Origin: Lentisphaeria bacterium
GTDB lineage: Bacteria; Verrucomicrobiota; Lentisphaeria; Victivallales; UBA1829
Assembly: GCA_017455665.1 (NCBI GenBank)
Contig: JAFSZN010000154.1
Span: forward strand, 1 to 61,627
Direction of reading: 5' to 3'
DNA: 61,627 bases
A program made the translations under genes and the position numbers. Of this stretch, positions 42,893 to 58,632 are shown in pieces (the first letter of the stretch is position 1; each line of letters begins with the position of its first letter). The notes below the pieces were generated by a model. That model was not told the DNA's origin. It worked only from the letters and a program-made list of their open reading frames with translations, and searched no databases.

Positions 42893-43339
42893 TTATAGTC
42901 TATGTCCGTCAATCTTGAAGAGCGCCGAACGGAAAAATTCCTTCAGACGCCGCAATTCCGTTGCCATGGCGTCCGGCGGGGGAAGCTCATCCAGTTTTTC
43001 CGCAAGGGATTTCTTTTCCATAATGTTCCAGACCAGCGGGCTCTCCGTTTCGTCATAACTCCCGAATGAGAACAGGATGCCGCACTTGCCTTTATTGAGA
43101 CGGTTCTCCAAGGCGGGGATCCCTTCCGCGCGGACCCGGGAGCCGTATTGGCGGAACAGGCTGAAAACGACAATATCGGCTTCCATGTAGATTGGAGCCG
43201 GCAGTTCAGTGAATTCAAATGCGCCAAGGCATTCATACCGTTCGATCATGGCGGGCACGGCAGATGCGTATTGGAAAAGAGCCGACATGACGATCTTTCC
43301 ATCTCCCAGAAACATTATTTTTTTCTTATTCTGCGCCAT
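42893..43339 (-). CDS. Small degenerate receiver-like (pseudo-REC) protein
   Basis: KKIMFLGD…EADIVVFSL…EGIPAL…GILFSFG follows the receiver beta/alpha order, with Ser at the phospho-Asp position; directly follows livF. Confidence 0.5.
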   Translation of the reverse strand: MAQNKKKIMFLGDGKIVMSALFQYASAVPAMIERYECLGAFEFTELPAPIYMEADIVVFSLFRQYGSRVRAEGIPALENRLNKGKCGILFSFGSYDETESPLVWNIMEKKSLAEKLDELPPPDAMATELRRLKEFFRSALFKIDGHRL

Positions 43340-43346
43340 GATCAGA

Positions 43347-44054
43347 TCAGAAATAGTGTTTTTCGAGCCATTGCGGATCAAGCATCTGCCTCATATCGGA
43401 TGTTTGGGCGCGTATTTCGCCCCGGATCAGGATGACGGCACGGTTGATCCACTGAAGCAGTTCCAGACGATGTTCGACCATGAGCACCGACTGGTCCGGA
43501 TTGTTCTGAATGAAGCCGTGGATCCGCTCCATGATGTCAACGGCGGCTTTCGGCGAAAGCCCGGCGGTCGGTTCGTCCAGCAGATACAGCGTCTTTTTCC
43601 GCAGGAGCACCATTGCAATGGCAAGCGCCTGCCTTTGTCCGCCCGAGAGTGCTCCGGACCGTTTGTTCATGTGGGGACGAAGCAGGTCGAAGACTTCAAG
43701 CACGCGGCAAAGGGAGTCCTTGAATTCATTCCTGCGCATTGTGAGGCCCGCGATCTTGAGATTCTCATGCACCGTAAGCCCCGGGAAGATATTGCCGGTC
43801 TGCCGCAGGTATCCGATTCCGGCGTTGACGCGCATTGCCGTTGAAAGCTGCGCGATGTCTTTTCCCTGAAACCGTATTGTTCCCGACGTCAGCGGCAGAA
43901 GCCCGATGACAGCCTTGAGGAGAGTGGATTTCCCGCAGCCGTTCGGGCCCGCAAGCAATACGGATTCGCCGGAGTTCACGGCAAGCGACACTCCGGTCAG
44001 CACAGGGCGAGTCCCGTAACCGCAATGGGTCCGGTCAAGTTCGAGCAGGGTCAT
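43347..44054 (-). CDS. ABC transporter ATP-binding protein, LivF-like
   Basis: GPNGCGKST, LSGGQRQ, LLDEPTAGLSP, MVEH. Confidence 0.88.
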   Translation of the reverse strand: MTLLELDRTHCGYGTRPVLTGVSLAVNSGESVLLAGPNGCGKSTLLKAVIGLLPLTSGTIRFQGKDIAQLSTAMRVNAGIGYLRQTGNIFPGLTVHENLKIAGLTMRRNEFKDSLCRVLEVFDLLRPHMNKRSGALSGGQRQALAIAMVLLRKKTLYLLDEPTAGLSPKAAVDIMERIHGFIQNNPDQSVLMVEHRLELLQWINRAVILIRGEIRAQTSDMRQMLDPQWLEKHYF

Positions 44055-44848
44055 ATTGTTTCTCCCGACAATCCCATATACAATTCCCGTACTTCCGGGT
44101 TTTCAAGCACACATTTCTGTGTTCCATGGCAGAAAACGGTTCCTTCATGCATGAAATAGATATAGAACGCAAGCGCCCTGACCGCGCGCATGTTGTGTTC
44201 GATCAGCGCGATGGAGACCTTGCGGTCCTCTATCATCCGCTTGATGAGCGCAATCATCTTTCCCGTCATTACGGGCGACAGGGCGGCGGTCGGTTCATCA
44301 AGCAGCAGCAGGCGCGATTTGTGGGCAAGCAATCTGGCGATCGCGAGGAGTTTCTGCTGTCCAAAGGAAAGCTCGCCGCCTTTTTTTTCCGCGGAATCCG
44401 CCAGCCCGACATATTCCAGCCAGGACATCGCTTCATCATGGAACCGCCTTGCCTGTACGCTGTGTTTCCAAAAACGGCAGGCGGAGAACAGGGAATAGTC
44501 CTCCGGGGAGAGCAGCGCCGCGCGGACATTGTCAAAGACCGTAAGGTTTTCAAAAATGCGGACATCCTGGTACAGCTTGCCGACTCCCATCCTGGCGATC
44601 TGCCACGGCTGGAGCTGCGTGATGATTTGTCCGTCGAGGAGCACTTGGCCCCGGTCCGCCCGGAGATTGCCGGTCAGGATATGGAACATCGTCGTCTTGC
44701 CCGCGCCGTTCGGTCCGACAAAGGCAGTGACGCGTCCCGGGAAGATTGTGATGTCGACATCATGGAGAGCCTGAAAAGAACCGAAACTCTTTGTGATGTT
44801 TTTTGCCACCAGTTCCGGCGGCTGCGTGGTTTCGGGGGGACGTTTCAT
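44051..44848 (-). CDS. ABC transporter ATP-binding protein, LivG-like
   Basis: GPNGAGKTT, LSFGQQK, LLLDEPTA, LIEHNM; start ATG 44848 overlaps the livM stop. Confidence 0.88.
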   Translation of the reverse strand: MKRPPETTQPPELVAKNITKSFGSFQALHDVDITIFPGRVTAFVGPNGAGKTTMFHILTGNLRADRGQVLLDGQIITQLQPWQIARMGVGKLYQDVRIFENLTVFDNVRAALLSPEDYSLFSACRFWKHSVQARRFHDEAMSWLEYVGLADSAEKKGGELSFGQQKLLAIARLLAHKSRLLLLDEPTAALSPVMTGKMIALIKRMIEDRKVSIALIEHNMRAVRALAFYIYFMHEGTVFCHGTQKCVLENPEVRELYMGLSGETI

Positions 44849-45714
44849 TTTACCGCGTACTCCCCGGCAAGTCCGCGCGGCCTGAAGTACATTAGGACCA
44901 CGAGCAGAATGCCGTAAATGATCTCGCGCATGTTGGCGGCAATGGTGTCCGGCATCCCGACAAAACGCAGAATCTCCGGCAGGGTCAGCATGAACAGTAC
45001 GCCGCAAAGCGGTCCCCGGATGTTGCCGGACCCGCCGACCAGGAGGATCGAGGCGATGAAGATACTTTCCGTCAGGGTAAACGATGTCGGGTCGATATAG
45101 GTCACGTATCCGGCGAAGCACACGCCCGGAATCGCCGCAAGGGCGCTGCTGACCACCATTGCGCGGGTGTATTGCCTCCGGGGAGAGATCCCCAGTGTCT
45201 GGGCCGCCGCCTCGTTGTCGCGCAGCGATTTCAGCGACAGGGCAAACGTGCTTCGGCATATCAGCGTCACCAGGAGAAGCACGATCAGAAATATCACGGC
45301 GCAGAAGAAAAAGTATTGCCATGAGCCGTCAACCGTGAACCCGAAAATGCCCGGGCGCGGGATGCCCGAAATGCCATACGGCCCGCGGGTCAGAGAGATC
45401 CAGTTGTACAGGATCACATACACGATCATCTGAAATCCGATCGTTGCCAGTACGAAAGTCTCATTGCGGAAGCGCAGCGCGGCAATGCCGAACAGCCAGC
45501 CGACCAGTGCGCAGAATGCGATCGCGCATGGCAGCGTTACCAGGAACGGCAAGCCGAAGTGCAGGGAAAGGAGCGCATAGACATAAGCCCCGAGCCCGTA
45601 AAAAGCCGCTTGCGACATTGTCAGCAAACCGCTGAACCCGATCAGCAGATTCGCGGAACATGCCAGCATCCCGTAGATCGCAAGCATTGCGCCGATGTGC
45701 AGAATATAATTCAT
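44845..45714 (-). CDS. ABC transporter permease, LivM-like
   Basis: SQAAFYGLGAY, LTRGPYGISGIPRP, LRDNEAAA, LLVGGSG, RPRGL. Confidence 0.88.
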   Translation of the reverse strand: MNYILHIGAMLAIYGMLACSANLLIGFSGLLTMSQAAFYGLGAYVYALLSLHFGLPFLVTLPCAIAFCALVGWLFGIAALRFRNETFVLATIGFQMIVYVILYNWISLTRGPYGISGIPRPGIFGFTVDGSWQYFFFCAVIFLIVLLLVTLICRSTFALSLKSLRDNEAAAQTLGISPRRQYTRAMVVSSALAAIPGVCFAGYVTYIDPTSFTLTESIFIASILLVGGSGNIRGPLCGVLFMLTLPEILRFVGMPDTIAANMREIIYGILLVVLMYFRPRGLAGEYAVK

Positions 45715-46598
45715 GAACCCTGTTCCTCCAGGCGTTTGCGAGTCCCGAAGATCCCCTGCGGCTTCAGAAGCAAAACGCAGATCAGGACCCCGAATGTCAC
45801 AAGATCCGTCCAGCGTGCCGAGAATCTCCAGACCGCAAGGCTCTGCAGCACTGTGATCGCCATGGCTCCGGCACCCCATGCCCAGTAACGGTCCGTCCCC
45901 CCGAAAAACACCGCGACCGAGGCAAGCAGCAGATAGTGCATCCCGACATGGGGATCCATCCCGATGTCGTAGGAAAGCAGAAGCGCGGACATGGCTACCA
46001 TCAGGCCGCAAAGCGACATGACGATCAGGCGCAGCAGATTCAGCGGCAGCCCCAGCACGGGGATGAGCTCCGGCTGATCCCCCATCGCCCAGATCGCCTT
46101 GAACCAGTCGCTCCGCTGCACCAGGACGCCGGTTAATCCGAAGGCTGCCGCCGAACAGAAGAACTGAAGCAGCTGGATCCGGGTAAAACGGAGCCCGCAG
46201 AACGCCACCGACGGTTCAAGCTGTGTTGAAATGGTCTTGACCTCATTTCCAAATGCCAGAGCCAGTGCGTTCTCCACAACGATCATGATCCCGAGAGACG
46301 CGATCATCGTGGCGCCGGAGCTAACGCCTTTCCGCAAGAACGGCCGGTAGACCACAAGTTCGATTCCCCACGCGAAAAGGACCGACAGCGCCAGCGAAAC
46401 CGCGGCGGCTGCAAGCATCGGCAGATGCAAAACGGCTCCGAACAGATAGAACATGTAACAGGAAAAGATAAACTGCCCCCCGAGCGCAATATGGAAAACG
46501 CGGAATGACCGGTATACAAAGCCGAATCCGGCTGCAAGGCATGCCGCGACTGCCCCCTGTACGATCCCATTTCCCAGAAGCTGCAAAAAAAGGCTCAT
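45711..46598 (-). CDS. ABC transporter permease, LivH-like
   Basis: QLLGNGIVQG…GFGFVY…FHIA, MIASLG, FFGG, LLKPQGIFG. Confidence 0.88.
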   Translation of the reverse strand: MSLFLQLLGNGIVQGAVAACLAAGFGFVYRSFRVFHIALGGQFIFSCYMFYLFGAVLHLPMLAAAAVSLALSVLFAWGIELVVYRPFLRKGVSSGATMIASLGIMIVVENALALAFGNEVKTISTQLEPSVAFCGLRFTRIQLLQFFCSAAAFGLTGVLVQRSDWFKAIWAMGDQPELIPVLGLPLNLLRLIVMSLCGLMVAMSALLLSYDIGMDPHVGMHYLLLASVAVFFGGTDRYWAWGAGAMAITVLQSLAVWRFSARWTDLVTFGVLICVLLLKPQGIFGTRKRLEEQGS

Positions 46599-46984
46599 GG
46601 CTTCAGCACCTGCGACAAAGCTTTCTTGATCTCATCGGGCTGGAGCGGTTTCCTCAGGAACCGGATCGCGCCGCGCTCGATCGCCTCCAATTCATATTCG
46701 ATCGTCTGGTAGGCGCTTGTCATGATGACCCGAGTCTCCGGAGACCGTTCCCTGATCCAGGAAAGGAGATCCATCCCGCTGACATCGTCCGCCCGGGTCT
46801 TGTCCAGACGCACGTCGATGATTGCGAGATCGACCGGAGAATGAGCGGCAAAGAGAGAACGTGCCTGTTCGGCGGACTCGGCGATCAGTGTTTCCGCATC
46901 GTCCGGCAGGTACATTTTGAAGGCAAGCGAATACTCGCCGACATCATCAACGATCAGGATTCTGTTTCGTTTCGGATTATTCAA
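46595..46984 (-). CDS. Single-domain response regulator (CheY-like receiver)
   Basis: RILIVDD, DLAIIDVRL (phospho-Asp), SGMDLL, IMTSA, FLRKP; TTG start with AAGGA RBS; overlaps the livH start. Confidence 0.9.
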   Translation of the reverse strand: MNNPKRNRILIVDDVGEYSLAFKMYLPDDAETLIAESAEQARSLFAAHSPVDLAIIDVRLDKTRADDVSGMDLLSWIRERSPETRVIMTSAYQTIEYELEAIERGAIRFLRKPLQPDEIKKALSQVLKP

Positions 46985-47027
46985 AATCAGTCCTTGTTCA
47001 TATGGTTTGCAACTGTCTGCTCGAAAA

Positions 47028-47043
47028 AGCATTTTTCATGCCA
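47028..47043 (-). promoter_or_regulatory. Sigma54 (-24/-12) promoter for the receiver-livHMGF operon
   Basis: TGGCATGAAAAATGCT has exact GG-N10-GC spacing, about 45 nt upstream of the start codon. Confidence 0.7.
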
Positions 47044-47149
47044 ATGTGTTACGAAATCTGTTCGTTTCCCAGCTTCGGCAGCCAGCCTCAAATCGTCCGG
47101 CATGTCGAAAGCACAAGAAAGAACATGTCTGAAAGATGTGATCTTTTTG

Positions 47150-48565
47150 TCACGCAAAGAAATGGACAACATCTGGAAACTCCTCGTTCGCTTCCGGAAA
47201 CAGGGCGAGAGCTTTTCTGAGACGACGTTGAAACACGAAACGGTCATTATAGCCAAGCTGTCCGGCAAGTTCGCTTTTCGTGATCCGGTCATGTTGCGCG
47301 AGCGCCCGGCTGCAGAATTCCACCTCGGCACGGGCAAGACAACGGTGGAAATCCGTGATCTCCGCTCCGCTTGAAGTGTTTGTGCCGATCATCGACGCCG
47401 GAAGATGTTCCAGCCGGATGGTCTCATCCTGTCTGGCGCGCGCCTGGATCGCGGAATACTCCACGACATTCCGGAGCTCTCGTACATTGCCGGGCCATTT
47501 GCTGCGCATGAACAGCGCCAGCACCGGATGGTCGAAACCCGTCGCGGTCGTGCGGTTTGCTTTCAGCATCTCCGCGAGAAAATGTTCCGCAAGCGGGGAA
47601 ATGTCCTTGGGGTGGTTGCGAAGCGGCGGCACACGGATCTCGAATGCCTGAAGCCGGTAGTACAGGTCCTCGCGGAATTCCCCTCGTTCGATCATGGCGT
47701 CCAGATTGCGGTTCGTGGCGGTCACAAGCTGGAAATCCGCATCGATTTCCTTCGTGCCCCCGAGCCGCTGGAATGTACGGCTTTCCAGCACGCGCAAAAG
47801 CTTGACCTGGGTTTCAGGATCGAGGTCCCCGATCTCATCAAGGAACAGCGTCCCCCCGTGCGCTTCCTCGATGAATCCCTTGTGCTGCGTGGCGGCCCCG
47901 GTAAACGCCCCCCTCTCGTGTCCGAAGATCTCGCTGTGGATCGTGGTCCGGTTCATTCCGGCGATCGAGACCGCGACGAACGGACCGTCTTTGCGGCGCG
48001 GGCTCAGCTGGTGGATGTTGCGGGCGACCAGCTCTTTCCCCGTACCGCTTTCCCCCCGGATCAGCACGGACACCTTGCCGTCCGCCGCCACCAGGTTGAT
48101 CCTCTGCTGGATCTCGCGCATCTCGGGACTGCCGATTACCATGTCGGGCGAATCCACCTCGGCAAGGCGTTTTTCCAGCGAGGCGACGCGGCGGCGGAGA
48201 TGCCCCTGCTGCAGCACCACGCCGATCATTTGCTTGATGAACGGGATGGAGAACTCATCCTTGTTCAGATAAAGCTGCGCGCCGGATTCGATCGCCGCGA
48301 TGTGCGTCTCCGTGTCCACATATTTCGTGACGACGATCACAAGCTGGTACGGGTCGACTTCCATGATTTCATTGAGGATGTCAAGTCCGTCGCGGTCGTG
48401 TTCCAGGCGCATGTCCAGCACGATCAGGTCGAATGCGTATGGCCGGAACGCTTTGCGAAACATCTCCGCGGATTCGGCATGCTCGATCCGGTAACGCCCG
48501 TTGCACTGCTGTGTCAATGCGTCGCGAAATGCTTTGTCGTCGTCTACGATGAGCAGTTTATCCAT
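47150..48565 (-). CDS. Sigma54-dependent response regulator (NtrC family: REC-AAA+-HTH)
   Basis: LLIVDDD, DLIVLDMRL, GESGTGKE, intact GAFTGA, LFLDEIG, FREDLYYRL, WPGNVREL, C-terminal HTH; GGAGG RBS. Confidence 0.93.
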   Translation of the reverse strand: MDKLLIVDDDKAFRDALTQQCNGRYRIEHAESAEMFRKAFRPYAFDLIVLDMRLEHDRDGLDILNEIMEVDPYQLVIVVTKYVDTETHIAAIESGAQLYLNKDEFSIPFIKQMIGVVLQQGHLRRRVASLEKRLAEVDSPDMVIGSPEMREIQQRINLVAADGKVSVLIRGESGTGKELVARNIHQLSPRRKDGPFVAVSIAGMNRTTIHSEIFGHERGAFTGAATQHKGFIEEAHGGTLFLDEIGDLDPETQVKLLRVLESRTFQRLGGTKEIDADFQLVTATNRNLDAMIERGEFREDLYYRLQAFEIRVPPLRNHPKDISPLAEHFLAEMLKANRTTATGFDHPVLALFMRSKWPGNVRELRNVVEYSAIQARARQDETIRLEHLPASMIGTNTSSGAEITDFHRCLARAEVEFCSRALAQHDRITKSELAGQLGYNDRFVFQRRLRKALALFPEANEEFPDVVHFFA

Positions 48566-49054
48566 TTGAAATCCTCCTTCCGATATAAATATATCACGCT
48601 TTCGATGAAATGCAACAAAAACATCACAAAATACCTCGTTTTTTTGAAGCGTGAAGCCGGATGACATAAAAAGGATTCAAAAAAAGCAATCGTGGACCAA
48701 TGATTGTCATCCTCTTCTTCCCCTCCCGGACGATTGCATGGATGTGTTTTGGGGCGTTGCCGGGCGAAAAACAAGAGTGTTTTTTATGCCGGCAGGAATG
48801 GACAGAGGAATCCCGGCAGGAGGACGGTTGTACGAACATCAGCTCGGAATTGGCGGAGGATTGCTCGCGGCGTGCACGTCGGATCCGTTTATCTGAGCGT
48901 GTCATTGAATCGACGAATCGCGGTTGTAATAGAAATGTCTTTCCGGGCGAGGATCGATGAGGCCGTACCGGAGGGTTTGTATGATCCAATTGAGCGGTCT
49001 ATGTGCTGCCGCCGGCAGAGGATATGCGAAAAAATGTGAGTTTTTTTGGGTTTT

Positions 49055-49070
49055 TGGCACGCAAACTGCT
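49055..49070 (+). promoter_or_regulatory. Sigma54 (-24/-12) promoter for the binding protein-kinase operon
   Basis: TGGCACGCAAACTGCT is near consensus, with GG-N10-GC spacing. Confidence 0.72.
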
Positions 49071-49097
49071 TGACTTTTATGCAAACCGTGTTATATT
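49070..49097 (+). promoter_or_regulatory. Sigma70-type promoter overlapping the sigma54 promoter
   Basis: TTGACT-N16-TATATT with TG at the extended -10. Confidence 0.6.
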
Positions 49098-49141
49098 TCG
49101 CTTACAAACGGTTAAATAAATCTAATTAAGGGTTGAAAAAA

Positions 49142-50257
49142 ATGAACCGTAACACAAAAATCCTCACCATTGTCATCGTAGTCGTTGCCGTCTGCGCAAT
49201 TGCTTTCTTTGGTATCCGAAACCAGATGAAACAGCATTCCAGCGATGATAAAAACGTCATCAAGATCGGAGCGATTCTTGCAATGACTGGTCCAGGGGCT
49301 GAATACGGACAAGAGGCTTTGGATGCATTAAAAACAGCAATTCTTTATAATCAGGATTTATGCAAAAAAAACAATGTAAGATTTGAACTTGTTGTTGAAG
49401 ATTCGAAAACCGTTGCAAAAGATGGATTAAATGCCTATAACGCAATCAAGTTAAAACATCCTGATATCAGTGTTGTTTTTTCACATGCAAGCGCTGTAAC
49501 AAATCTTCTTTCTTCCTACTCAAAAAAGGATAAAATGATTTTAGTGGCAGAGGCAACAAATTCTACTCCGGCAGAAAACAATCCGTTCTATTACATCAAT
49601 CAAATTGATGATTATGTAACTTCAAAACTTTTGCTTGATCATGCAACAGACGTAGATAAAATCCTTTTGTTCTACCTGAACGATGATTTTGGAAGCAACA
49701 TTTATAAAAAAATGAAAGACGCAGGCAGTGTAAAAGTTGATGGAGTTTCTTTTGAACATACATCGAATTTGAAGGATATTGTTGCAAAGGCTTCTATCAA
49801 CAATTATAAAAAGATAGCAGTTGCCGGCTACGGAATGAGTTCGGTTAATATTATCCGTGAGATAAAGAGTGCGGGTTATTCCGGTATTGTTCTCGTCTCG
49901 CCCGGTCTTTTGACTGTCGAGAACAAAAAGATTTTAAAAGATTATGCTTCAAATGTGTTTTTTGTTGTCAGCGAAATTCCGGGTGAAGATATTGCAAGAA
50001 TATACAAAGAAAACTTTGGACGCACATTTTTCTCTTCGACAAGTATTGACTTTTTCAGCGCAGGAGATGCTGTAATAAAAAGTTACAACATGGTTTTAGA
50101 GGACAATATTCCATTTAACAAAATCACTTCAACAGATATAAAAAATAAACTTGATACCCAGTTTTTAAATGTAAAGGCATTCCCGTTTGAATCTATCACG
50201 AATCAGCGTTTTAATTATAAGGGTAGTTTTAAGACCATAGATGGAGAAAGATTATGA
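49142..50257 (+). CDS. ABC substrate-binding protein, LivK/type I periplasmic-binding family, N-terminally membrane-anchored
   Basis: Hydrophobic N-terminal helix; IKIGAILAMTGPGAEYG, LVVEDSK, YLNDDFG; very AT-rich. Confidence 0.85.
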   Translation: MNRNTKILTIVIVVVAVCAIAFFGIRNQMKQHSSDDKNVIKIGAILAMTGPGAEYGQEALDALKTAILYNQDLCKKNNVRFELVVEDSKTVAKDGLNAYNAIKLKHPDISVVFSHASAVTNLLSSYSKKDKMILVAEATNSTPAENNPFYYINQIDDYVTSKLLLDHATDVDKILLFYLNDDFGSNIYKKMKDAGSVKVDGVSFEHTSNLKDIVAKASINNYKKIAVAGYGMSSVNIIREIKSAGYSGIVLVSPGLLTVENKKILKDYASNVFFVVSEIPGEDIARIYKENFGRTFFSSTSIDFFSAGDAVIKSYNMVLEDNIPFNKITSTDIKNKLDTQFLNVKAFPFESITNQRFNYKGSFKTIDGERL

Positions 50258-53200
50258 TTGGTCCTGTTTTGAAGAATAATTCATCCTTTCACATTGTCCT
50301 TTCAAAAAAGGTTTTACGCAACAGCACGGAAAAAGAATTAATAACTGATATCGGCTCGGTAATTGACAGAAGCGCTTCCCAAAAGATTGCTTGGTCTTTG
50401 GGAGACAAAACATTCTTTACAGAGAGATATGATGCCGTATTTGTATTTCAGGGAGATGGTATAGTTGATACCAATGAAAAGCTTCATAGCTTGATTCACA
50501 TTTGTTCGTTTAACAGTTGTATCCTTTTTTATTTTTGGAAATATGATTATGATGAGAACACCCTGCTTCCGGACACACTGAAGAGAAATGTTTTTATTAA
50601 GAATGATTCAACCGTATTTCATACAAAGGAATTGAGCGGCTACTCCAACTATAAAGTTTTTATTCCCAAAACAATATTCATAGACAGGACACTTACCTAT
50701 TCTTATTCTTTGGGTACGCCATTAAAAAGACGTTATTTTTATCCGTCCTTGTCATCGCCTATTGATATGTCAACGCTTGTAAAGCAATGGTTCGAATCTG
50801 ATGGAAAAAGGTATCTACTGGCAAATGAGTTGCATAAAGCTATAAGAGAAAACATCAAAGAATCTAATATTCCTATTTCTTTTTTGGATTCAATTTCTTT
50901 TTCATGTTTTTTTTATGTTACCGACAATAGCGCTGATTTCTTTTCATTGAAACCGTCTGAACTTACAGAGCTGACAAAACTGCTTAGGAAAAGTTTCTAT
51001 TCCGGTTGTATTTTGCCTTTTTATAAGTATAAATGCGAAAACGATTTCTTTCTCATCAGACCGGAAAAAAAATCCTGGAATGAACGATTCCATCCTGATA
51101 GAATAGATGATTATATCGGATGGATTATTAAGCACAACGGATATAATTTTTTAAATGATTCCTTGATAAAAGATGCTTTGGATTCATCAAAATATGTTTT
51201 CTGCGGAATGGTGATCGGAAAATACATCCCTCTTCATGAAGGCATTTGCGTTTCTTCCAGTTACTGTTTAATCAACGTTGAAGACAACACGGGCAAAAAT
51301 GACTATGCCAAATTCTTTGATGCGGTTTTGTGCTCTACTGCAAAGGAAATGGATTTCCTGCTGGACAAGTTTGTATTGGAAGATACACGCAGCCGTTTCA
51401 TGCGAAAATCCATTTCATCCGCAATTGGCTCCATCATGTCGCGGAACGGTTCGCACAATATCGGAAGCCATGTGCTTTCGACTTTGACGCATCATGTCGG
51501 CACCATGCCGGACGACCGGGTGCTTTATCAGTACATTCAGCAGCGCATGGATTATATCGCTACGATTACGACCGACATCCCGAACTGGGGGGCATCCACG
51601 ATGTTCGTCGGCGACATGATGAAGACATTCTTCTCGCAGCATCATCTTCTTGAATTCATTTCCGGCAGTGAAGGACTTCACGCCTATTCGTTCCAGGATC
51701 CGAATCTCAGTTTGGAACTTCGCAGAAAGCAGGAAAACACGATCAAGCTGCATATCCGCCGTATTGGAAAGGGGGCGGGGAAGCTCGCGTTTAACAAGGA
51801 CTTCAAAAAGACAGAGGAAAAAACAGATTGGGACGATGTTGCAAACGCAAAAGCAAACGCATTGCATTTTATTTGTTATCCGGATCGGGAAAAGATTCAT
51901 TTTATTGATTACGTGGAAGACCGGCCGATCCCGCTTCAGGAGGATACCACGTTGTCCATTCCCGGCGGAGTCGTAGGGGAGCACGCGTTCTTTACGATTC
52001 TGGAAAATATTATTCGGAACGCCGCCAAGCACGGTTGGGCGACTTCCTCCAAAAAGGAAAAGAACCTTGAGATTTATATTGACTTCATTGACAACCCCGA
52101 CAGTGACTTTGTTGAATTTACCATTTGGGACAATATGTCCGATGTCCTGAAGCCGATTAAGAAATCCGAGGGAGGATCAGCGGAAAAATATATCAAACTT
52201 TTTAAAGTGTTAGCCTCCGTCAAGGATATACTGTCTGCCGAGATTGATATTTCGGAATCGAACGGGGATTCTTCCAATGCCCTTGCCCCAAAAAAGCCGA
52301 CCAGATCGGAATGGATCAAAAAGAAATTTAAAGGTTTGGCTGGAAAAATAGGAGATATTTCTGAAGAGAATACAGAGCCTGATTCCGATCTGCTGTCGGA
52401 TTTCGAAAAGAATCTTGATGATATCTTGAAAAACAACAGGCGGGAGTTCGAGCAGATTTTGTGCAAACCGCTGACACGAGAAGAGATTAGGATGATAACC
52501 AGGGCGAAAAAAGAGGCGCGGGATTTTGATAAGTGCCTGCCGCTTCACATGTGTCAGCAGCAGCTTTTGGAACAGCCATTGATTACGGAACAGGGCGAAC
52601 TCCGGCGTGAAAACTGGGGGCTGGCGGAAATGAGGATTTCCGCGGGATATCTTCAGCAGCGCAGCATTACGGAAATCGGCGGACTTGAAGAGTTGAAAGA
52701 TGATGATTTTATTGTCCATGTCGTTGCCATGCCCGGTGTCTGCACGTGTGAATCCAATCAAAACGGCGGCATTCGCTGTGACGCGAAGAAATGCGACAAC
52801 AAAACCAACTGCCCCATCGAATCGAAGCTTTATCATCTCGGCTATCGTTTCAAGGTGTGGAAACCGCGTGAGATGCTGATCGTATTTGACGAAACTGACG
52901 ACAATTATTCATTCGGGGGGCAGAAAATTGCGAAAAATGACCTCATAAAAATGTTGCCTGAATTCAAAAAGAATGGCGTGTATTTCGCGGTAATGTCTGG
53001 AAACGAGTGTATCCTTATAAATTCTACAGAAAGCCTAAATGCCACAGATCAATCGAACAACGACATTGTTATCACCGAGTTCAATTTCGGATATGTCGTT
53101 TTCAGTAATAAGGAAACGGCTGAAAAATGCGGCACGGCTTTGCTTGAAAAAAACTCTGGCAATATCGACTCTGCCTCAAGGAAAGCCCAGGAGAAGACTG

Positions 53201-54831
53201 GAGACGAGAAAAACGAGGAATGGAAATCGCAATTCCCGTTCCGTCTCCTGTATGAGAATCTCAAAATAGAACTGAATAATTCCTCTGCTCAGAAGAATAT
53301 CCAATCCGTAAAGAATGCGGTTTATGCTGCCTGGCTTGAAAAACTGCAGAAGTTTAGAGCTCTGCCGGGCAACAAGAATTGTCTTACGATGCAGATCCAG
53401 ACGGAGGAGCGCGGCAATGCCTCCGCCGGGCAGGGGCTGATCACAAACCGCAATCTGCTGGAATATGTGTTTCGGAAGAACTATCTTCCGGTGCTTTCGC
53501 GTCAGTCGTTCAGTCATATTGAAAACGATCCCTATACATTGATCCTTGATCTGCTGAAGCTCTATCCTCAACCGTACAAGAAGATTCCGGACCAGAAAAA
53601 CTGGGAGGATGATATCTCGAGGATGATTCGCATCACGCTTCAAAGGATCTGCGAAGACTTCGAGCGTTCATATTATGATATACGAGCCCTGATCCGTCAT
53701 TCTGAATTCGTGGACGGCGCGAAATCCGAAGATGATAAAAAGGAATTCTGCGGCGTCATCTATGAGCAGATCAATGGTCAGAGAGACGGGGCGCGGTTGA
53801 AAAATGCCATCTTGAACATTCCTGAATCTGTTTTCTGTGAAAGGATCCGTGCGTTTTCAATTGCCAGCAAGGGATGCGGCAATGATGAGATCAGAAAGCT
53901 GCTTCGTGGAGAAACGTCGATGAAGCATGCATCGCCGTTCGCGGTCCTGGTGGATTCTCCCGTTGAAATCATCACAAAAGAGCTCAAGAACGCCTATGAC
54001 ATCTCCGACTCGCTTCTCCGCAAATACGAGGAACGCATAACCACTCTGCCGCATGGGTATTCCATCAATCAGACCGATGGAAGAGAATCGAAGAAATCGG
54101 TTATGAAAGAGCTGAACAAGAATCTGTCTCAGGTCCATATAAAACTTGTGGGCGACGGCGACAACCCAAGGATCAAGTATTGCCGGCATGACAAGGATTG
54201 TCCGGAGGGTTGTCTGTATGCCGAGGCGTTAAGCGGATCGCAGTCGTATCTCAATACTCTCCATCGGATTATGCATCCGTCGGATTCGTCGCAGTCGCAG
54301 GATCCGGAGCAAAAAGACAGCATCGGGATGTTTGTGCGCCTGGCGGAAAACGCTTTGATGCGGGTCCTGATCATTGATGAACGTGTCAGCAATTTCTTAA
54401 AAGACCATACCGCAAACAAATCCGTTTTTGAGGCGATGAAGATTGATGTCGTTGACATACAGGAGGATTTTTTCCTCAAGGAGGATGATTTGAAATGTCC
54501 TTCAAGCCTTCCGTTGCTTACGAATACGGAAAAAACGCCTGCGGCTAGTGAGCGGAGATGGGATATTCTGATCATTCATCAGGGAATCATAGACAAAGTC
54601 CTTGAGGATCACCACGACGAGAATCATGTCGAAGAGCTGATAAATGAGATTAAATATGTGGACTATAAGGTTGTCACCACCGGACGCGGACGTCCCGACA
54701 ACATTCCAAATTCCGTCAAGGTACTGCCTTTTTCGATGATCGAGGGTACACTTTTCCGCAATTACCCGGAAAAAATGCTGTTGGTCAATGCCGTGATGAA
54801 CGCTTTGCCTTACAGCAGGAATAAGCATTGA
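50254..54831 (+). CDS. 1525-aa atypical soluble histidine-kinase-like protein with C-terminal His-substituted receiver domain
   Basis: H-box-like IMSRNGSHNIGSH; N-box LENIIRNAAKHG; G1-like TIWDN; G2-like ENWGLAEM; C-terminal RVLIIDER…ILIIHQG…VVTTGRG; no TM segment; ATGA overlap with the binding-protein gene. Confidence 0.7.
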   Translation: MIGPVLKNNSSFHIVLSKKVLRNSTEKELITDIGSVIDRSASQKIAWSLGDKTFFTERYDAVFVFQGDGIVDTNEKLHSLIHICSFNSCILFYFWKYDYDENTLLPDTLKRNVFIKNDSTVFHTKELSGYSNYKVFIPKTIFIDRTLTYSYSLGTPLKRRYFYPSLSSPIDMSTLVKQWFESDGKRYLLANELHKAIRENIKESNIPISFLDSISFSCFFYVTDNSADFFSLKPSELTELTKLLRKSFYSGCILPFYKYKCENDFFLIRPEKKSWNERFHPDRIDDYIGWIIKHNGYNFLNDSLIKDALDSSKYVFCGMVIGKYIPLHEGICVSSSYCLINVEDNTGKNDYAKFFDAVLCSTAKEMDFLLDKFVLEDTRSRFMRKSISSAIGSIMSRNGSHNIGSHVLSTLTHHVGTMPDDRVLYQYIQQRMDYIATITTDIPNWGASTMFVGDMMKTFFSQHHLLEFISGSEGLHAYSFQDPNLSLELRRKQENTIKLHIRRIGKGAGKLAFNKDFKKTEEKTDWDDVANAKANALHFICYPDREKIHFIDYVEDRPIPLQEDTTLSIPGGVVGEHAFFTILENIIRNAAKHGWATSSKKEKNLEIYIDFIDNPDSDFVEFTIWDNMSDVLKPIKKSEGGSAEKYIKLFKVLASVKDILSAEIDISESNGDSSNALAPKKPTRSEWIKKKFKGLAGKIGDISEENTEPDSDLLSDFEKNLDDILKNNRREFEQILCKPLTREEIRMITRAKKEARDFDKCLPLHMCQQQLLEQPLITEQGELRRENWGLAEMRISAGYLQQRSITEIGGLEELKDDDFIVHVVAMPGVCTCESNQNGGIRCDAKKCDNKTNCPIESKLYHLGYRFKVWKPREMLIVFDETDDNYSFGGQKIAKNDLIKMLPEFKKNGVYFAVMSGNECILINSTESLNATDQSNNDIVITEFNFGYVVFSNKETAEKCGTALLEKNSGNIDSASRKAQEKTGDEKNEEWKSQFPFRLLYENLKIELNNSSAQKNIQSVKNAVYAAWLEKLQKFRALPGNKNCLTMQIQTEERGNASAGQGLITNRNLLEYVFRKNYLPVLSRQSFSHIENDPYTLILDLLKLYPQPYKKIPDQKNWEDDISRMIRITLQRICEDFERSYYDIRALIRHSEFVDGAKSEDDKKEFCGVIYEQINGQRDGARLKNAILNIPESVFCERIRAFSIASKGCGNDEIRKLLRGETSMKHASPFAVLVDSPVEIITKELKNAYDISDSLLRKYEERITTLPHGYSINQTDGRESKKSVMKELNKNLSQVHIKLVGDGDNPRIKYCRHDKDCPEGCLYAEALSGSQSYLNTLHRIMHPSDSSQSQDPEQKDSIGMFVRLAENALMRVLIIDERVSNFLKDHTANKSVFEAMKIDVVDIQEDFFLKEDDLKCPSSLPLLTNTEKTPAASERRWDILIIHQGIIDKVLEDHHDENHVEELINEIKYVDYKVVTTGRGRPDNIPNSVKVLPFSMIEGTLFRNYPEKMLLVNAVMNALPYSRNKH

Positions 54832-54838
54832 AAGGAGA

Positions 54839-55675
54839 ATGCGCGGGATGTTCCATTATGTCTACATATCCAAGGACAGCAATGATTTCTCCTCATTTGC
54901 ATCGTCAGCCGCCCAGCCGATGAATCTTAACGGGCATGAGGCGTTCCTGCTTTCCGATTCAAGTCGTCCATGTTTTGTGCTTCACGAACAGCAGCCCGCG
55001 TGCGATGAACTGGCAAAAACGCTGAAAAACGGTCAGGATGATGCTGTCAGGAATGCGGTCCGGACTTTTTTTGATGTCTGCGATCAATGCGGCGTTGTTC
55101 AGGACAGCAACGTCATTTTCCTGATTCATTTCGGCGGACATGGGGAAGGGGACTGCCGCCGCGATTCCCGGAGAATGTGGAAAGCAACGGCGGATGATCC
55201 AGTTCTGGCGCGGCATCTTTTCATTTCCGTGAGCAAATACAACAGCTGTCCGTCCATTTGTTTCAAGGATAGCGCATTGCGACTGCCGGAAGATAAAAAT
55301 GAGAATTCCGTGCGCAAACGCTTTGAGCAATGGGCAAATGCCGACAGCACGGTTCCCGATTACGATCACCTTCGGGGAATATCCATTCTTTGTCAGGCGC
55401 TTCTGGAAATGAACCTGGAAGAAAGAGAGGAAAAGCTTTCCTGGCCGGGAATGAAATGGTGGCGCCAGTGTCTTTGGAGCGGGAAAAGGTTTTCTCAAAT
55501 AAATAAAGATGCTTTCACGCAAGCGGAACTGGCGATCCTGGAATCGGGAAACGGAAAAAAACTGAAGCATTTCTGCTCCTGCATCATCAACTATATGGAT
55601 ATGAAAGAGTATTCCGCGGATGATTGTTTGCGGGAGCTCATTTCTGTTATCACAAAAGAAATAAACAAGATTTGA
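54839..55675 (+). CDS. Hypothetical protein, possible His-type pseudo-receiver
   Basis: AAGGAG RBS (start may be ATG 54848); alpha/beta pattern with VIFLIHFGG and LFISVS. Confidence 0.6.
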   Translation: MRGMFHYVYISKDSNDFSSFASSAAQPMNLNGHEAFLLSDSSRPCFVLHEQQPACDELAKTLKNGQDDAVRNAVRTFFDVCDQCGVVQDSNVIFLIHFGGHGEGDCRRDSRRMWKATADDPVLARHLFISVSKYNSCPSICFKDSALRLPEDKNENSVRKRFEQWANADSTVPDYDHLRGISILCQALLEMNLEEREEKLSWPGMKWWRQCLWSGKRFSQINKDAFTQAELAILESGNGKKLKHFCSCIINYMDMKEYSADDCLRELISVITKEINKI

Positions 55676-55684
55676 GGTGGTAAT

Positions 55685-56401
55685 ATGGACAATAGCGACA
55701 TTCGTCAGTTGATTGATGATAACAAAGAGATAAAAGAATCTCTTCGTGACATTTATCGGTTGATTGATGATAACAGAAGTGACATTTATCGGTTGGTTGA
55801 TGATAACAGAGAGATAAAAAATTCTTTTCAAGCTCTCAATACGGTAGCTCGTCCGCCGTGGTGTTTTCCCTGGCTTTTTATCCTTTTTGCGGTTTTGTTG
55901 ATCGCCTTGATTCTTGCTCCCTTCTTTTTCAAATGTGACTCCGACAGTTCATTTGTCTTTTCCAATCCATGCCAGACGGAAGCCGTTACGAATTCCGGAG
56001 AGGGTACTGATTCCAATGTATTGGGAACGGCTTCAGGAAAAACCGCAGATGAGACAACCAAAGAGACGAAAAGTATAAAAGCGAATCTTGGGGGGAACAC
56101 GAACGAAAAAAGAAAGGGACTCGGAAGCTCTTTCAAGATGACCTGGTACAAGGAGGGAAGTCAATCCTCTTCCTTCATGTATTTGCAAATGGCACTCTGT
56201 TTTTTCTCCTATTTCTTTGCAGTTTTTGTTACCAGTCTGATCTGTTACAAGCTCTTCAAGTGCAGCCAAAGAAGCTGGATGCTTGGGAAAAATGGTGTTA
56301 TATTCTCGAATCTGCTCAATTCGTCTCCGAAACGGGAGGAATATCAGGAGCAGTTCCTTCAGGAAATGATGCGGATTTATTTTAATAAAAAGGATGAATG
56401 A
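55685..56401 (+). CDS. Hypothetical 2-TM membrane protein with N-terminal tandem repeats
   Basis: GAGGTG RBS; DIxxLIDDN three times; two hydrophobic helices flanking a Ser/Thr-rich loop; ATGA overlap with the next gene. Confidence 0.7.
   Translation: MDNSDIRQLIDDNKEIKESLRDIYRLIDDNRSDIYRLVDDNREIKNSFQALNTVARPPWCFPWLFILFAVLLIALILAPFFFKCDSDSSFVFSNPCQTEAVTNSGEGTDSNVLGTASGKTADETTKETKSIKANLGGNTNEKRKGLGSSFKMTWYKEGSQSSSFMYLQMALCFFSYFFAVFVTSLICYKLFKCSQRSWMLGKNGVIFSNLLNSSPKREEYQEQFLQEMMRIYFNKKDE
55697..55828 (+). repeat. Three imperfect in-frame direct repeats (GACATTtaTCgGTTGaTTGATGATAACA)
   Basis: Copies start at 55697, 55748 and 55781 (spacing 51 and 33 nt). Confidence 0.9.
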
Positions 56402-58632
56402 TGCTGAAATTTCTGTCAGTTTCGTCATCACAAATCTTTCTGAACAGCATAGGGCAGTTGCTGGAAGTCATTTCGACAAGAATGGGAATGCCTGAAAGCA
56501 GATCTCTTTCTTTATCTTTTAATCCCCGCGCAGATGAAAACGATACGGACAGGCTTGCAGAATTCGAGCGTCTATTTTGTGCGGTAGATTCAAGTCTTCA
56601 GGAGCATGACCCGGTACACGACCGGTTTGTCGGAATCATTGATTGCGGGAAAGCAAAAAATGCCTGGGGAATCCACGCTTTGACAAGCATTCCCGGGATG
56701 ATGATCCTGACATTTCCTGAAATACAATGGATCCCTGTTTACAATGACGGGACTATCGGATCCAGTACCTTGGGCCTTAGGCGGGCGATTGAACTATGTC
56801 TGGGCGGTTATTCGCCGTTGTTCGACGGCGACGGGCTTCGTGGGATCCTGTTGAATCGAATTCGCAACGGCTATGGGAAGAGCGATTTGCGGCGGGATGT
56901 CGCCTTTGCGATTGACGAGGAGCCTTATTTCGCTTTCATCAACATCTACACTGCTTTTCGATTCGGATATCGTGGATTCCCCGTAACGACGGCCCGGTGC
57001 GCGGAGGAATTGCTCACCGCGCCCGCGAGTGATTCCGGAGTGAATCCGATTCGCGAAAAGATACCCTGTGCGGCCGAGTTCGATGAAACGAAGGAAGGAA
57101 CCGGGCATCAGGTGAACTCGGTTGTCGTATTTGAGGATATCTGCCTGCGCTTTCCCGATAGAAATGAGGAATATTCGAAAGAGATTGCCTTCGGAGACAA
57201 GCGGGATAGGTATTTCCGTCTGATTTCCGACGCTGACCTTCGCATCGTGACCACCGCCGCCCAGCCGGGAGAAAAAAATGCGGTCTGGCATGAAAAAAAG
57301 ATAACTCTTGAGTCGTATTTCAGAAAAGCCGGGATCGGCTCGATGCCGTATAGAAATGTCATCGCTTCCTATGGTGGAGAAATGAAGCAGATCGTACGGA
57401 TCCTGAAACGCAGACTATTCAATTATACCGGAGGAAAATGGATCGGGTACTGGCTGAAGAATCTGATAGAACTTATGGTTTATCTTTCCTTGGGGATTGT
57501 TTTTTTCGTGTACAAACCGTCCTGTATTTTTATTCTGCTGCTCTTTCTCTTTCTCCGTTTCTCTATCGTCAACTGGCTGAACGACAATCTTAAACTGGAT
57601 CGGTTCCCCTATGTCGTCAAATACCGCCAATGGGCATTTATGCCGAAATGCTATGTCAATCACGATCCGGTTTGGAATAATTCAGAAAAGGGAAGGGATC
57701 GGAACTGCCGTTTCTGGGATGTTGCGCGCAAGCCGCTTGCAGGCATATTCGGGCTTCGCAATAAATGCGGACTGCCCAATGGCAAAAACTGCCCGGCTGT
57801 TTACAGCACAGATTTTGTCGTCAATTTTTACCGGCAGGTCATTCGGACCGGACAGTTTGCCGACAATCCGAAGAACAAGCGCGAGGGAAGCGGTCATGCC
57901 GCACCGGGGGTGGCGCTAGAGATCGCCACGCGCCTGATTCGGCGGGCGGAAAACATGAAGGAGAAAGTCCTGGATGTGGAAAGCGCAATCTATGCCGCCG
58001 TGCTCGCGGATGTCGCGCTTGAGCTTCTGGACAACAAAACGCCTGCCGTTTCCATGGAGGCGGTTTACTGGAAACACCATTATGAAATCGTGGCTGAGTG
58101 CGAATTCGTAGGTGTGCGCGCCCACCTGGACATGAAAGACCGGTATATTGATATTCACAACGCGATCGGAAGGATATGCCGCGCCGACAACAACCGTGTC
58201 CGGAATACCATTTTTCTCTCCGGCATGGCGGAAATCGCTGAGAAGATTTCAAATCTTCTTTACGACAAGGGAAAACTTGAAGAGGCGGCGTACTTTACCA
58301 CACATTCCCGCCGCCTGCACCGCAAACTCCTCTCTCCCGCGATGAGGACTTTGATGGCGTATCCCGAATGGGCTTTGCGCAGCACTTGGAATTTCATGTT
58401 CAGCTTCGGCGGTTTCTTCCTGCTTTTCTTCCTGTACTGGAAGTATACTTTTGACCAGCCCTTCCTGACTGCGCTTACTTCGACCTTCAAGGTGATGGTC
58501 GCCCGGAATATGGAGACTCCGCCCATAGAAACGGACCAGACGAGATTCATCATCATGATGGCATGCCAGATCGCCGGTCTGCATCTGTGTTTTGTCGCCG
58601 CTCACTTCCTCATGTTCATGAACAGAAAGTGA
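56398..58632 (+). CDS. 744-aa membrane protein with split receiver-like domain, helical region and C-terminal channel-like 2-TM module
   Basis: VAFAIDEE, VVVFEDICL, RIVTTA, a TM pair, then RKPLAG; C-terminal TM-short helix-TM. Confidence 0.6.
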   Translation: MMLKFLSVSSSQIFLNSIGQLLEVISTRMGMPESRSLSLSFNPRADENDTDRLAEFERLFCAVDSSLQEHDPVHDRFVGIIDCGKAKNAWGIHALTSIPGMMILTFPEIQWIPVYNDGTIGSSTLGLRRAIELCLGGYSPLFDGDGLRGILLNRIRNGYGKSDLRRDVAFAIDEEPYFAFINIYTAFRFGYRGFPVTTARCAEELLTAPASDSGVNPIREKIPCAAEFDETKEGTGHQVNSVVVFEDICLRFPDRNEEYSKEIAFGDKRDRYFRLISDADLRIVTTAAQPGEKNAVWHEKKITLESYFRKAGIGSMPYRNVIASYGGEMKQIVRILKRRLFNYTGGKWIGYWLKNLIELMVYLSLGIVFFVYKPSCIFILLLFLFLRFSIVNWLNDNLKLDRFPYVVKYRQWAFMPKCYVNHDPVWNNSEKGRDRNCRFWDVARKPLAGIFGLRNKCGLPNGKNCPAVYSTDFVVNFYRQVIRTGQFADNPKNKREGSGHAAPGVALEIATRLIRRAENMKEKVLDVESAIYAAVLADVALELLDNKTPAVSMEAVYWKHHYEIVAECEFVGVRAHLDMKDRYIDIHNAIGRICRADNNRVRNTIFLSGMAEIAEKISNLLYDKGKLEEAAYFTTHSRRLHRKLLSPAMRTLMAYPEWALRSTWNFMFSFGGFFLLFFLYWKYTFDQPFLTALTSTFKVMVARNMETPPIETDQTRFIIMMACQIAGLHLCFVAAHFLMFMNRK

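Follow-up and report, generated by a model that had tools for sequence, protein, structure and literature searches.

A candidate import-coupled signalling locus with a large, unannotated family of soluble kinase-like proteins in a Lentisphaeria bacterium

Why would an importer be encoded back to back with an operon that joins its binding protein to a very large kinase-like protein? The question is raised by positions 42893-58632 of contig JAFSZN010000154.1 from a Lentisphaeria bacterium (assembly GCA_017455665.1), where genes for a Liv-type ATP-binding cassette (ABC) importer, a sigma-54 activator and a lone receiver stand beside a gene for a soluble protein of 1525 amino acids (aa). The whole contig of 61,627 nucleotides (nt), called the window below, is contig C105 of a metagenome-assembled genome (2.58 Mb, 70% complete), and its nearest relatives are labelled Victivallales, Lentisphaeria and Kiritimatiellia.

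Our answer, which we hold with slightly better than even confidence, is that the locus carries out import-coupled two-component-type signalling, built on a large unannotated family of soluble kinase-like GHKL proteins, with a specificity cassette that can be swapped. An extracellular small molecule would be captured by the anchored LivK-type binding protein and imported by LivHMGF. Once in the cytoplasm, the molecule itself or something made from it would be sensed by the 1525-aa protein through its variable N-terminal domain, and the conserved core may then autophosphorylate on an H-box-like SHNIGSH motif. The phosphate acceptors would be the lone receiver and the receiver domain carried by the NtrC-type activator; together with sigma-54, the activator would drive both arms of the locus in a positive feedback. 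The co-transcribed 278-, 238- and 744-aa proteins would form a membrane-associated output module, and the mature binding protein and the N-terminal domain of the kinase would act as one exchangeable specificity cassette.

Gene content, receivers and promoters

Open reading frame (ORF) calling places 12 ORFs in two divergent arms. By Pfam, the left arm (minus strand) holds a bacterial enhancer-binding protein (bEBP), a lone receiver, two permeases, two ABC ATPases and a 162-aa ORF; the right arm (plus strand) runs from a Peripla_BP_6 binding protein through the 1525-aa protein to proteins of 278, 238 and 744 aa:

47150..48565, minus strand: NtrC-type bEBP, 471 aa from the ATG at 48565, in an ORF that extends to 48667 (Pfam)
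46595..46984, minus strand: single-domain receiver, 129 aa from its likely start, TTG 46984 (Response_reg, E 8.4e-18)
45711..46598, minus strand: LivH-like permease, 295 aa (BPD_transp_2, E 5.3e-17)
44845..45714, minus strand: LivM-like permease, 289 aa (BPD_transp_2, E 3.5e-39)
44051..44848, minus strand: LivG-like ABC ATPase, 265 aa from the ATG at 44848 (ABC_tran, E 1.9e-32)
43347..44054, minus strand: LivF-like ABC ATPase, 235 aa (ABC_tran, E 9.4e-34)
42893..43339, minus strand: ORF at the end of the left arm, 162 aa from TTG 43381, with a likelier start at ATG 43339 giving 148 aa (ORF calls)
49133..50257, plus strand: LivK-type solute-binding protein, membrane-anchored or secreted, 374 aa (371 aa from ATG 49142; Peripla_BP_6, E 9.8e-19)
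50254..54831, plus strand: soluble kinase-like protein, 1525 aa (215 homologs; 3408 representatives)
54839..55675, plus strand: 278-aa protein, directly 3' of the kinase gene throughout its subfamily
55685..56401, plus strand: 238-aa protein with a repeated N-terminal motif and hydrophobic segments at 64-82 and 164-182
56398..58632, plus strand: 744-aa membrane protein with conserved N-terminal (~1-330) and middle (~440-640) domains and three hydrophobic segments

An original prediction, made from the letters and ORFs of the window alone, had described much of this layout, and the anatomy is real, apart from the receiver and pseudo-receiver labels taken up below. The ORF calls bear out the 12 genes in two divergent arms; Pfam matches bear out the NtrC-type regulator, the single receiver and the livHMGF-like genes of the left arm, as well as the LivK-type binding protein beside a kinase-like gene, in whose 1525-aa product a hydrophobicity scan finds no transmembrane segment. 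The frequent ATGA overlaps are present at six junctions (receiver/livH, livH/livM, livM/livG, livG/livF, binding protein/kinase and 238-aa/744-aa protein), livG overlapping both of its neighbours. The locus is indeed more AT-rich than its surroundings: G+C reaches 0.60-0.66 in the flanks but only 0.52-0.59 over the left arm and 0.35-0.50 over the right (0.41-0.50 for most of it, with the lowest block, 0.348, at 49279-51416). Also as foreseen, Pfam finds neither a canonical kinase domain nor a catabolic enzyme domain among the 12 genes. Both arms are covered by an independent contig of 14.5 kb.

The importer is complete by the composition of a HAAT (Liv-type) system, with two BPD_transp_2, two ABC_tran and one Peripla_BP_6 protein, and its binding-protein gene is separated from the other four genes, which all lie in the left arm. 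A single hydrophobic segment at residues 10-28 gives the binding protein an N-terminal anchor. For comparison, a scan of one genome per species yielded 102 relatives of the 1525-aa protein, from which 78 loci (labelled L below) of many phyla were kept; their ORFs were clustered and the cluster representatives named by Pfam.

The activator combines Response_reg (E 1.3e-16), Sigma54_activat (E 6e-63) and AAA_lid_14 (E 3e-19) domains, and the GAFTGA motif is visible in its translation; at its C-terminus, Pfam reports no helix-turn-helix family at E<=0.01. A copy that is 70% identical occupies the same divergent position in L004. The genome carries rpoN (contig C85) and encodes three true sigma-54 activators. 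Together with -24/-12 sites at both arms, a receiver-AAA+ activator with GAFTGA and an rpoN gene are the elements of a sigma-54 regulon and recall NtrBC. The locus differs from NtrBC in that its activator has no NtrB-like HisKA kinase as a neighbour; the 1525-aa protein is the sole kinase candidate, and the genome's 10 HisKA kinases all lie outside the locus. Elsewhere in the same genome, at C93:20188-21842, a sigma-54 activator directly follows a HisKA kinase in a canonical pair, unlike the kinase-less activator of the window.

The lone receiver is the second candidate phosphate acceptor. The ATG listed for its ORF (47032) falls within a -12 promoter element, and AAGGA precedes a TTG at 46984; the latter is therefore the likelier start. 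The resulting length of 129 aa matches the 121-132 aa of relatives in L004, L017, L024 and L025. Across 10 sequences of this family D13, D14, D57 and K112 are invariant and S90 nearly so, and both receivers of the window retain the DD, D, S/T and K positions. The kinase-like protein thus has two canonical receivers with a phosphoacceptor aspartate in its own locus.

Further receivers proposed in the original prediction found no support. It had labelled the 162-aa ORF, the 278-aa protein and the kinase C-terminus as pseudo-receivers and the 744-aa protein as a receiver. None of the four has a Pfam match to a receiver, and for the 744-aa protein, the 278-aa protein and the kinase C-terminus hhalign probabilities are 5.5% or lower with a profile of 26 receiver sequences and below 40% with the family of the lone receiver; the 162-aa ORF was covered by the Pfam scan only. 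A receiver-like strand pattern is visible by eye only and was not counted as evidence.

Two sigma-54-type promoters were located by pattern scan:

49055..49070, plus strand: promoter of the right arm, TGGCACGCAAACTGCT, one mismatch to TGGCAC-N5-TTGCW
47028..47043, minus strand: promoter of the receiver-livHMGF operon, TGGCATGAAAAATGCT, identified by pattern scan and conservation

The first site lies 63 nt 5' of the binding-protein ORF; the second keeps 8 of 11 consensus letters and lies just 5' of the receiver gene. Over the whole window, 21 sites with at most two mismatches were found against 24 expected. This is the chance level, so the pattern alone proves nothing, and the support for the promoters comes from their position and their conservation in related loci. 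We surveyed the upstream region of every called gene in 28 related loci for sites with at least 9 of the 11 consensus letters. Nine sites reached this mark, and eight of them stand at the head of an arm: in the window, L002, L004, L017, L024 and L044 they precede the binding protein or whichever gene leads the right arm, and in L004 and L029 the receiver gene. Loci without a bEBP had no such site. A promoter on each arm, as originally predicted, is on these grounds well placed and conserved, despite the window-wide count.

The 1525-aa protein and its family

The 1525-aa protein consists of a variable N-terminal part (residues 1 to about 375) and a conserved core (about 380-1525), which ends in an alpha/beta-type domain (about 1290-1525) rich in invariant residues. 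A word-indexed search found 215 relatives; with a profile, run against 1.84 billion representatives, the number rose to 3408 at E<=1e-3, of which 1671 reach E<=1e-30. Among 120 listed relatives, 114 have no precomputed Pfam family; the other six have methyltransferase families in their N-terminal part, PF01555 in three cases. No Pfam or NCBIfam model describes the family, PADLOC does not match the 1525-aa protein, and NCBIfam matches none of six window proteins submitted. Conservation changes along the protein: of 119 relatives, no more than 7 share residues 1 to about 350, whereas 118-119 share residues 401-625 and 776-875.

The conserved core contains two motifs that resemble those of histidine kinases:

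51439..51477, plus strand: H-box-like motif SRNGSHNIGSHVL, residues 396-408 (SHNIGSH), with H401 and H406 invariant in 36/36 and 22/22 sequences
51985..52038, plus strand: N-box-like motif FFTILENIIRNAAKHGWA, residues 578-595, with a Pfam HATPase_c match at 578-628

The SHNIGSH motif lies in a predicted helical stretch and was picked as a candidate H box by eye only; it may be the phosphoacceptor. Within ILENIIRNAAKH (residues 582-593) E584, N585, R588, N589, A591, K592 and H593 are invariant, and in 10 canonical kinases it is the N box that aligns with this motif. The G1-like position reads DN.S (626-629) rather than D.G.G, with D626 at least 90% conserved, and at the G2-like position NWGLAEM (787-793) is invariant. 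The H-, N-, G1- and G2-like positions all carry invariant residues in alignments of 36 and 22 sequences, and a dense set of invariant positions fills the last 240 residues.

HATPase_c scores 13.9 bits (E 0.076) with the whole protein and 15.8 bits (E 0.019) with the region alone. It is the only Pfam family that recurs when 22 members are scanned singly, appearing in 10 of them (best E 0.0015), while 14 other families appear in one each. Against ten HisKA kinases of the same genome, hhalign gives a probability of 86.6% for the stretch from N box to G1 box. Atlas feature neighbours, rated as leads only, are all HATPase_c or kinase clusters (0.83-0.86). Among them, and nowhere else, appeared the HisKin-conflict family PF22561 (0.85), which has no match in the genome at E<=10 and is not among the matches of the 1525-aa protein at E<=0.1. 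A complex prediction for the kinase region with the lone receiver, run without controls, scored 0.00 against a mark of 0.32 and counts neither for nor against binding.

Taken together, these comparisons make a GHKL fold probable. That the protein functions as a kinase, with autophosphorylation and phosphotransfer as the steps we infer, seems likely to us, at somewhat lower confidence. The GHKL label of the original prediction is accordingly left as a probable one: the HATPase_c signal recurs in 10 of 22 members, and every match is sub-threshold.

Three smaller observations concern the same protein. The idea that its N-terminus is a cytoplasmic copy of the binding protein was rejected (BLASTP E 1.7 or worse). 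Its C-terminus has a sub-threshold CobA_CobO_BtuR match (E 0.0016), which we leave uninterpreted. Contigs from three sequencing runs (X6, X8 and X9) carry a 12-nt in-frame insertion after 52188, within a long insert between the G1- and G2-like boxes.

Conserved linkage and the exchanged cassette

The original prediction staked its case on linkage of the kinase-like gene to the importer genes across genomes, and this linkage is kept across many phyla. We counted it in those 49 loci where the sequence before the kinase gene extends for 6 kb or more. Within 9 kb upstream, an ABC ATPase is present in 36, a permease in 35, a binding protein in 36, and two or more of these in 37. Downstream of the kinase gene, which served as an internal control, an ABC ATPase occurs in 1 of 52 loci. 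Receiver-family proteins lie within 9 kb of the kinase gene in 45 of the 52, and a bEBP is present in 19 of the 78 loci.

The divergent layout of the window, with activator, receiver and livHMGF opposite binding protein and kinase, recurs in L004, L017, L024 and L025 and in part in L002; about 20 further loci from other phyla have a co-directional layout. Four importer classes are represented, namely BPD_transp_2 with Peripla_BP_6 (Liv), SBP_bac_5, SBP_bac_3 and NMT1. We placed them on a FastTree phylogeny of the kinase, built from the 49 of 79 rows that match at least 150 profile positions and poorly resolved (9 of 46 branches starred). The window falls in a starred clade (99) of 11 rows, in which all 10 labelled rows are Liv-type. 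Importer class requires 9 changes on this tree against a shuffled mean of 14.6; it is clustered and yet has switched several times.

The Liv-type components themselves are shared widely. LivH homologs occur in 26 of the 78 loci and LivM homologs in 25, with identities of up to 76% and 75%, and LivF copies that are 55-58% identical lie upstream of kinase homologs in L005, L007, L008, L010 and L011. The binding protein is 20-29% identical to its best relatives in these loci, against up to 76% for the permeases. It is nearly an orphan: a word-indexed search of 5.8 billion proteins found two relatives at E<=1e-3 (38% and 31% identity). Such isolation is unusual for a Peripla_BP_6 protein.

Other partners vary from locus to locus. 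Enzymes often lie between binding protein and kinase or nearby, including radical SAM proteins of three kinds, a methyltransferase and an SDR protein; further types are NAD-synthase-like, DUF1152 and histidine phosphatase proteins and a pyridoxal-phosphate (PLP) decarboxylase fused to a receiver. Such a PLP-dependent decarboxylase-receiver fusion, and proteins of 1000-1300 aa that combine a receiver with a TCAD9 kinase-like domain, are found at L068:13443-15848 and L010:13348-16935. The outputs of the kinase family are accordingly very diverse, and most of them (clusters c4, c9, c15, c27 and c32) have no known domain beyond the receiver.

Three proteins follow the kinase in the window. Homologs of the 278-aa protein lie directly downstream of the kinase gene in L004, L005, L006, L007 and L009, and Pfam, PADLOC and NCBIfam name no family for it. 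The idea that the small proteins right after the kinase form one family was rejected; only clusters c25, c30, c40, c52 and c57 are interrelated, and the 278-aa family is separate from them. Among the 78 loci, L003 alone has a homolog of the 238-aa protein. In X6, X8 and X9 an 18-nt in-frame insertion after 55778 falls in its repeated N-terminal motif.

The 744-aa protein, a candidate output or effector, has hydrophobic segments at 353-385 and 717-735 and an N-terminal domain predicted to be cytoplasmic. Its family numbers 65 homologs, none with a Pfam family, and is present in 11 of the 78 loci. Five of the seven loci without a receiver-family protein carry it, the one hint that its N-terminal domain might substitute for a receiver. 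A family profile run against PDB sequences gave chance-level matches only. An Atlas search, with a best feature score of 0.79 (Ion_trans_2 in 14% of that cluster) and a structural TM of at most 0.30 on a model with pLDDT 0.43, was not accepted as evidence that it is a channel or a receiver.

Evidence on specificity comes from contigs of four sequencing runs, which we compared over 46500-56500. They delimit one further feature:

49279..51416, plus strand: exchangeable, putative specificity cassette, comprising the mature binding protein (from about residue 49) and kinase residues 1-388 (contig comparison; G+C 0.348)

In X6, X8 and X9, which come from three studies, 49278 is joined to 51417 through 2508 other letters that replace 2138 nt, and both flanks are at least 99% identical. 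One X6 contig, for example, has 6 mismatched letters in 2779 bases on one side and 21 in 5084 on the other. The left boundary lies past the anchor of the binding protein and the right one about 8 residues before the H-box-like motif, and the size of 2508 letters fits the same two gene parts in another allele. Two catalogued proteins are consistent with this replacement: P0002 (1644 aa) has 10 mismatches to the window protein after residue 400 and an unrelated N-terminus, and P0208 is identical to the 744-aa protein; for both, the longest contig has 14473 bases. Two cassette alleles were observed in all; three further runs, X7, X10 and X11, contain 0.41-0.49 of the sampled words.

This exchange suggests that the cassette is a specificity module. 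Among 435 pairs of loci only two have similar N-termini (L024/L025 and L015/L046), and these are also the two most similar binding-protein pairs. The original prediction had the ligand imported and then sensed in the cytoplasm, and the joint replacement of binding protein and kinase N-terminal domain supports it indirectly.

Readings of the locus and its relation to known systems

Several observations weigh against the signalling proposal. The HATPase_c scores of 13.9-15.8 bits are below the curated cut-off of 26.4 bits, and no curated model names the 1525-aa protein a kinase. HisKA, HisKA_2, HisKA_3 and His_kinase are unmatched at E<=0.1 in the 1525-aa protein and at E<=1 in the 22 members. 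Profiles of the whole family and of the kinase region find no solved kinase among PDB sequences, with chance-level matches only, and a profile hidden Markov model of the kinase region finds no canonical kinase among the 6686 ORFs of its own genome. The N-terminal domain has neither a recognisable ligand-binding fold nor likeness to the binding protein. By cluster labels, 10 of the 49 loci show no upstream ABC part, and the gene calls of related loci are crude (longest ORFs, greedy choice), which makes all counts lower bounds. The two arms differ in G+C and possibly have different histories. Similarity of binding proteins and similarity of N-termini have a rank correlation of about 0 (0.08; 435 pairs); because nearly all N-termini are unrelated, this family-wide comparison is uninformative. 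The cassette parts could also be co-inherited merely by adjacency.

A more far-reaching version of the proposal would add pherotype-like matched pairs. With its cassette, each strain would take up and answer its own variant of a diffusible molecule, produced by kin, competitors or the host gut, and a switch-like sigma-54 loop would deploy the 744-aa protein as an undescribed membrane effector. The wider family, with its four importer classes and its radical SAM, methyltransferase and decarboxylase partners, would then be a general branch of bacterial signal transduction, not recognised before, that works by 'import, process, then signal'. We regard this version as doubtful.

The first rival dispenses with ligand binding by the kinase, which would dock on the cytoplasmic face of the importer and read its activity as BceS reads BceAB. 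In the Bce-type module, as described in those portions of PMC4513084 available to us, a jointly encoded ABC transporter and histidine kinase act as one sensory unit, and the transporter genes receive feedback from the response regulator, a likeness and a precedent for flux sensing. This rival also agrees with the pairing of one conserved kinase core with four classes of importer that have just the ABC ATPase fold in common, and with a kinase that lacks both a membrane segment and any ligand-binding domain that could be recognised. However, Bce transporters are exporter-like rather than binding-protein importers and BceS is membrane-embedded, whereas here the permeases are of the BPD_transp_2 importer type, the importers of the family depend on binding proteins in all four classes, the kinase candidate is a soluble protein (1000-1900 aa across the family) without transmembrane segment, and a sigma-54 activator takes part. 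Moreover, it is the kinase N-terminus that varies and is exchanged along with the binding protein, whereas identity among relatives stays at 55-76% for the permeases and ATPases; ligand specificity fits this better than docking on a conserved ATPase does. We consider flux sensing unlikely.

A second rival, also improbable in our judgement, follows the original prediction's suggestion of a conflict or defence circuit. A soluble kinase would sense a molecule of an invader or competitor, the lone receiver would buffer, and the 744-aa protein or receiver-linked effectors would arrest or kill the cell, as in Detocs. The distribution is of the kind that this rival would favour. Outside the present genome, 1 of 15 members of the genus has the kinase (44% identical), as do 2 of 300 genomes in a sample of the phylum, and a sister-genome comparison of the type originally proposed places the locus, low in G+C, inside a variable region. 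In the sister genome G014, the homolog of 28.5-30.6 kb (85-93% identity, tblastx) abuts the MlaD homolog of 59.4-60.4 kb, which defines 30.6-59.3 kb, about 28.7 kb, as the region that G014 lacks. The hypervariable N-termini with their cassette exchange, the methyltransferase families (including PF01555) of some listed homologs and the fusions of a receiver to TCAD9 point in the same direction.

The layout is a further parallel. Detocs, according to the portions of bioRxiv 10.1101/2023.01.24.525353 available to us, consists of a DtcA kinase with a TPR sensor, a lone receiver DtcB and DtcC, a receiver joined to PNP or another effector; it likewise unites a soluble sensor kinase, a stand-alone receiver and effectors in a single operon, and some of its swappable effector modules are transmembrane. 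The present locus differs in lacking a PNP effector and a TPR sensor and in adding an ABC importer and a sigma-54 activator. PADLOC 2.0.0, which we take to contain Detocs models, gives no Detocs match for the kinase, the lone receiver, the right-arm proteins or the partner-family representatives; more generally it matches no right-arm protein and none of 10 partner-family representatives, save for weak receiver-type hits. Phage and plasmid collections hold no match and IMG/VR viral contigs one weak relative, no toxic effector domain was recognised, and binding-protein importers, sigma-54 autoregulation and radical SAM, SDR and PLP decarboxylase enzymes would be unusual defence parts. The defence role that had been suggested thus found no backing in defence models or in mobile-element collections.

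Least likely, with only a slim chance, is ordinary substrate-induced uptake, in which the left arm is a sigma-54 amino-acid importer and the right arm an unrelated recent island, or the GHKL protein an ATPase or chaperone: the different G+C of the arms, the identity to best relatives of 58-76% for left-arm against 20-51% for right-arm genes and the sub-threshold kinase call would suit it, but the importer's only binding protein is encoded in the right arm by a gene that overlaps the kinase gene, that arm is headed by a sigma-54-type promoter here and in five related loci, the divergent and co-directional layouts recur across phyla, the independent contig spans both arms, and two canonical receivers stand in a locus without any other kinase.

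Import-coupled signalling by the kinase-like protein, the reading we prefer, has partial parallels elsewhere. Lsr/AI-2 (autoinducer-2) and Opp with RRNPP regulators take up a signal through a binding-protein ABC importer and detect it with a cytoplasmic protein. The Lsr signal, once inside, is modified by an enzyme, with which the products of the radical SAM, methyltransferase and SDR genes between binding protein and kinase in related loci may be compared. Their sensors are one-component repressors or activators, whereas the sensor proposed here is kinase-like and would signal to receivers. The cassette recalls agr and comCD, in which pherotype cassettes include the signal precursor: here too a sharply bounded hypervariable segment with the sensor domain of a kinase is exchanged between near-identical strains. 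It differs in consisting of an extracellular binding protein and a cytoplasmic N-terminal domain, without a precursor gene and with two alleles seen; no signal-synthesis gene was recognisable in the locus or in the exchanged cassette.

The view that no described system matches the locus, also part of the original prediction, agrees with PADLOC, NCBIfam, Pfam, PDB sequences and the literature. We found no paper describing such a system in a search whose coverage ended short of subscription journals and supplements, and a term search of the portions of PMC7159879 available found no such description there. What the comparison suggests to be new is importer-coupled two-component signalling built on protein families that no library names; transporter-coupled two-component signalling as such is already known. 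If the proposal is right, a family of at least 1671 (E<=1e-30) and up to 3408 (E<=1e-3) sequence clusters would make up a new class of soluble sensor kinases that respond to whatever enters through a dedicated ABC importer, extending the known modes of cooperation between transporters and two-component systems. The unannotated 744-aa and 278-aa families and the partner clusters c4, c9, c15, c27 and c32 would gain a role. The two alleles of the binding-protein/sensor cassette in near-identical backgrounds are a natural experiment for finding the ligand and for learning how specificity is encoded, and the organisms are uncultured gut and sediment anaerobes, in which signalling is barely studied.

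Some observations concern the setting of the locus and of its relatives. The 162-aa ORF at the end of the left arm, a putative member of the system, starts after a 7-nt gap from livF; it has no match in Pfam, PADLOC or NCBIfam and no homolog among the 78 related loci. L016, L017 and L031 come from bins with archaeal labels (Methanobacteriota, Heimdallarchaeota and Aenigmatarchaeota). L017 has a sigma-54 activator and a sigma-54-type promoter, and on the kinase tree L016 and L017 share a starred clade with loci of Deltaproteobacteria; the three loci seem likelier to be mis-binned bacterial contigs than archaeal systems. Beside MlaD, the genomes G003 and G004 retain only the FMN-reductase gene. 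Most of the rest of the variable region is filled by a 3506-aa ORF (31869-42389, minus strand) with FG-GAP repeats near its C-terminus (E 6e-15), which probably encodes a giant surface protein.

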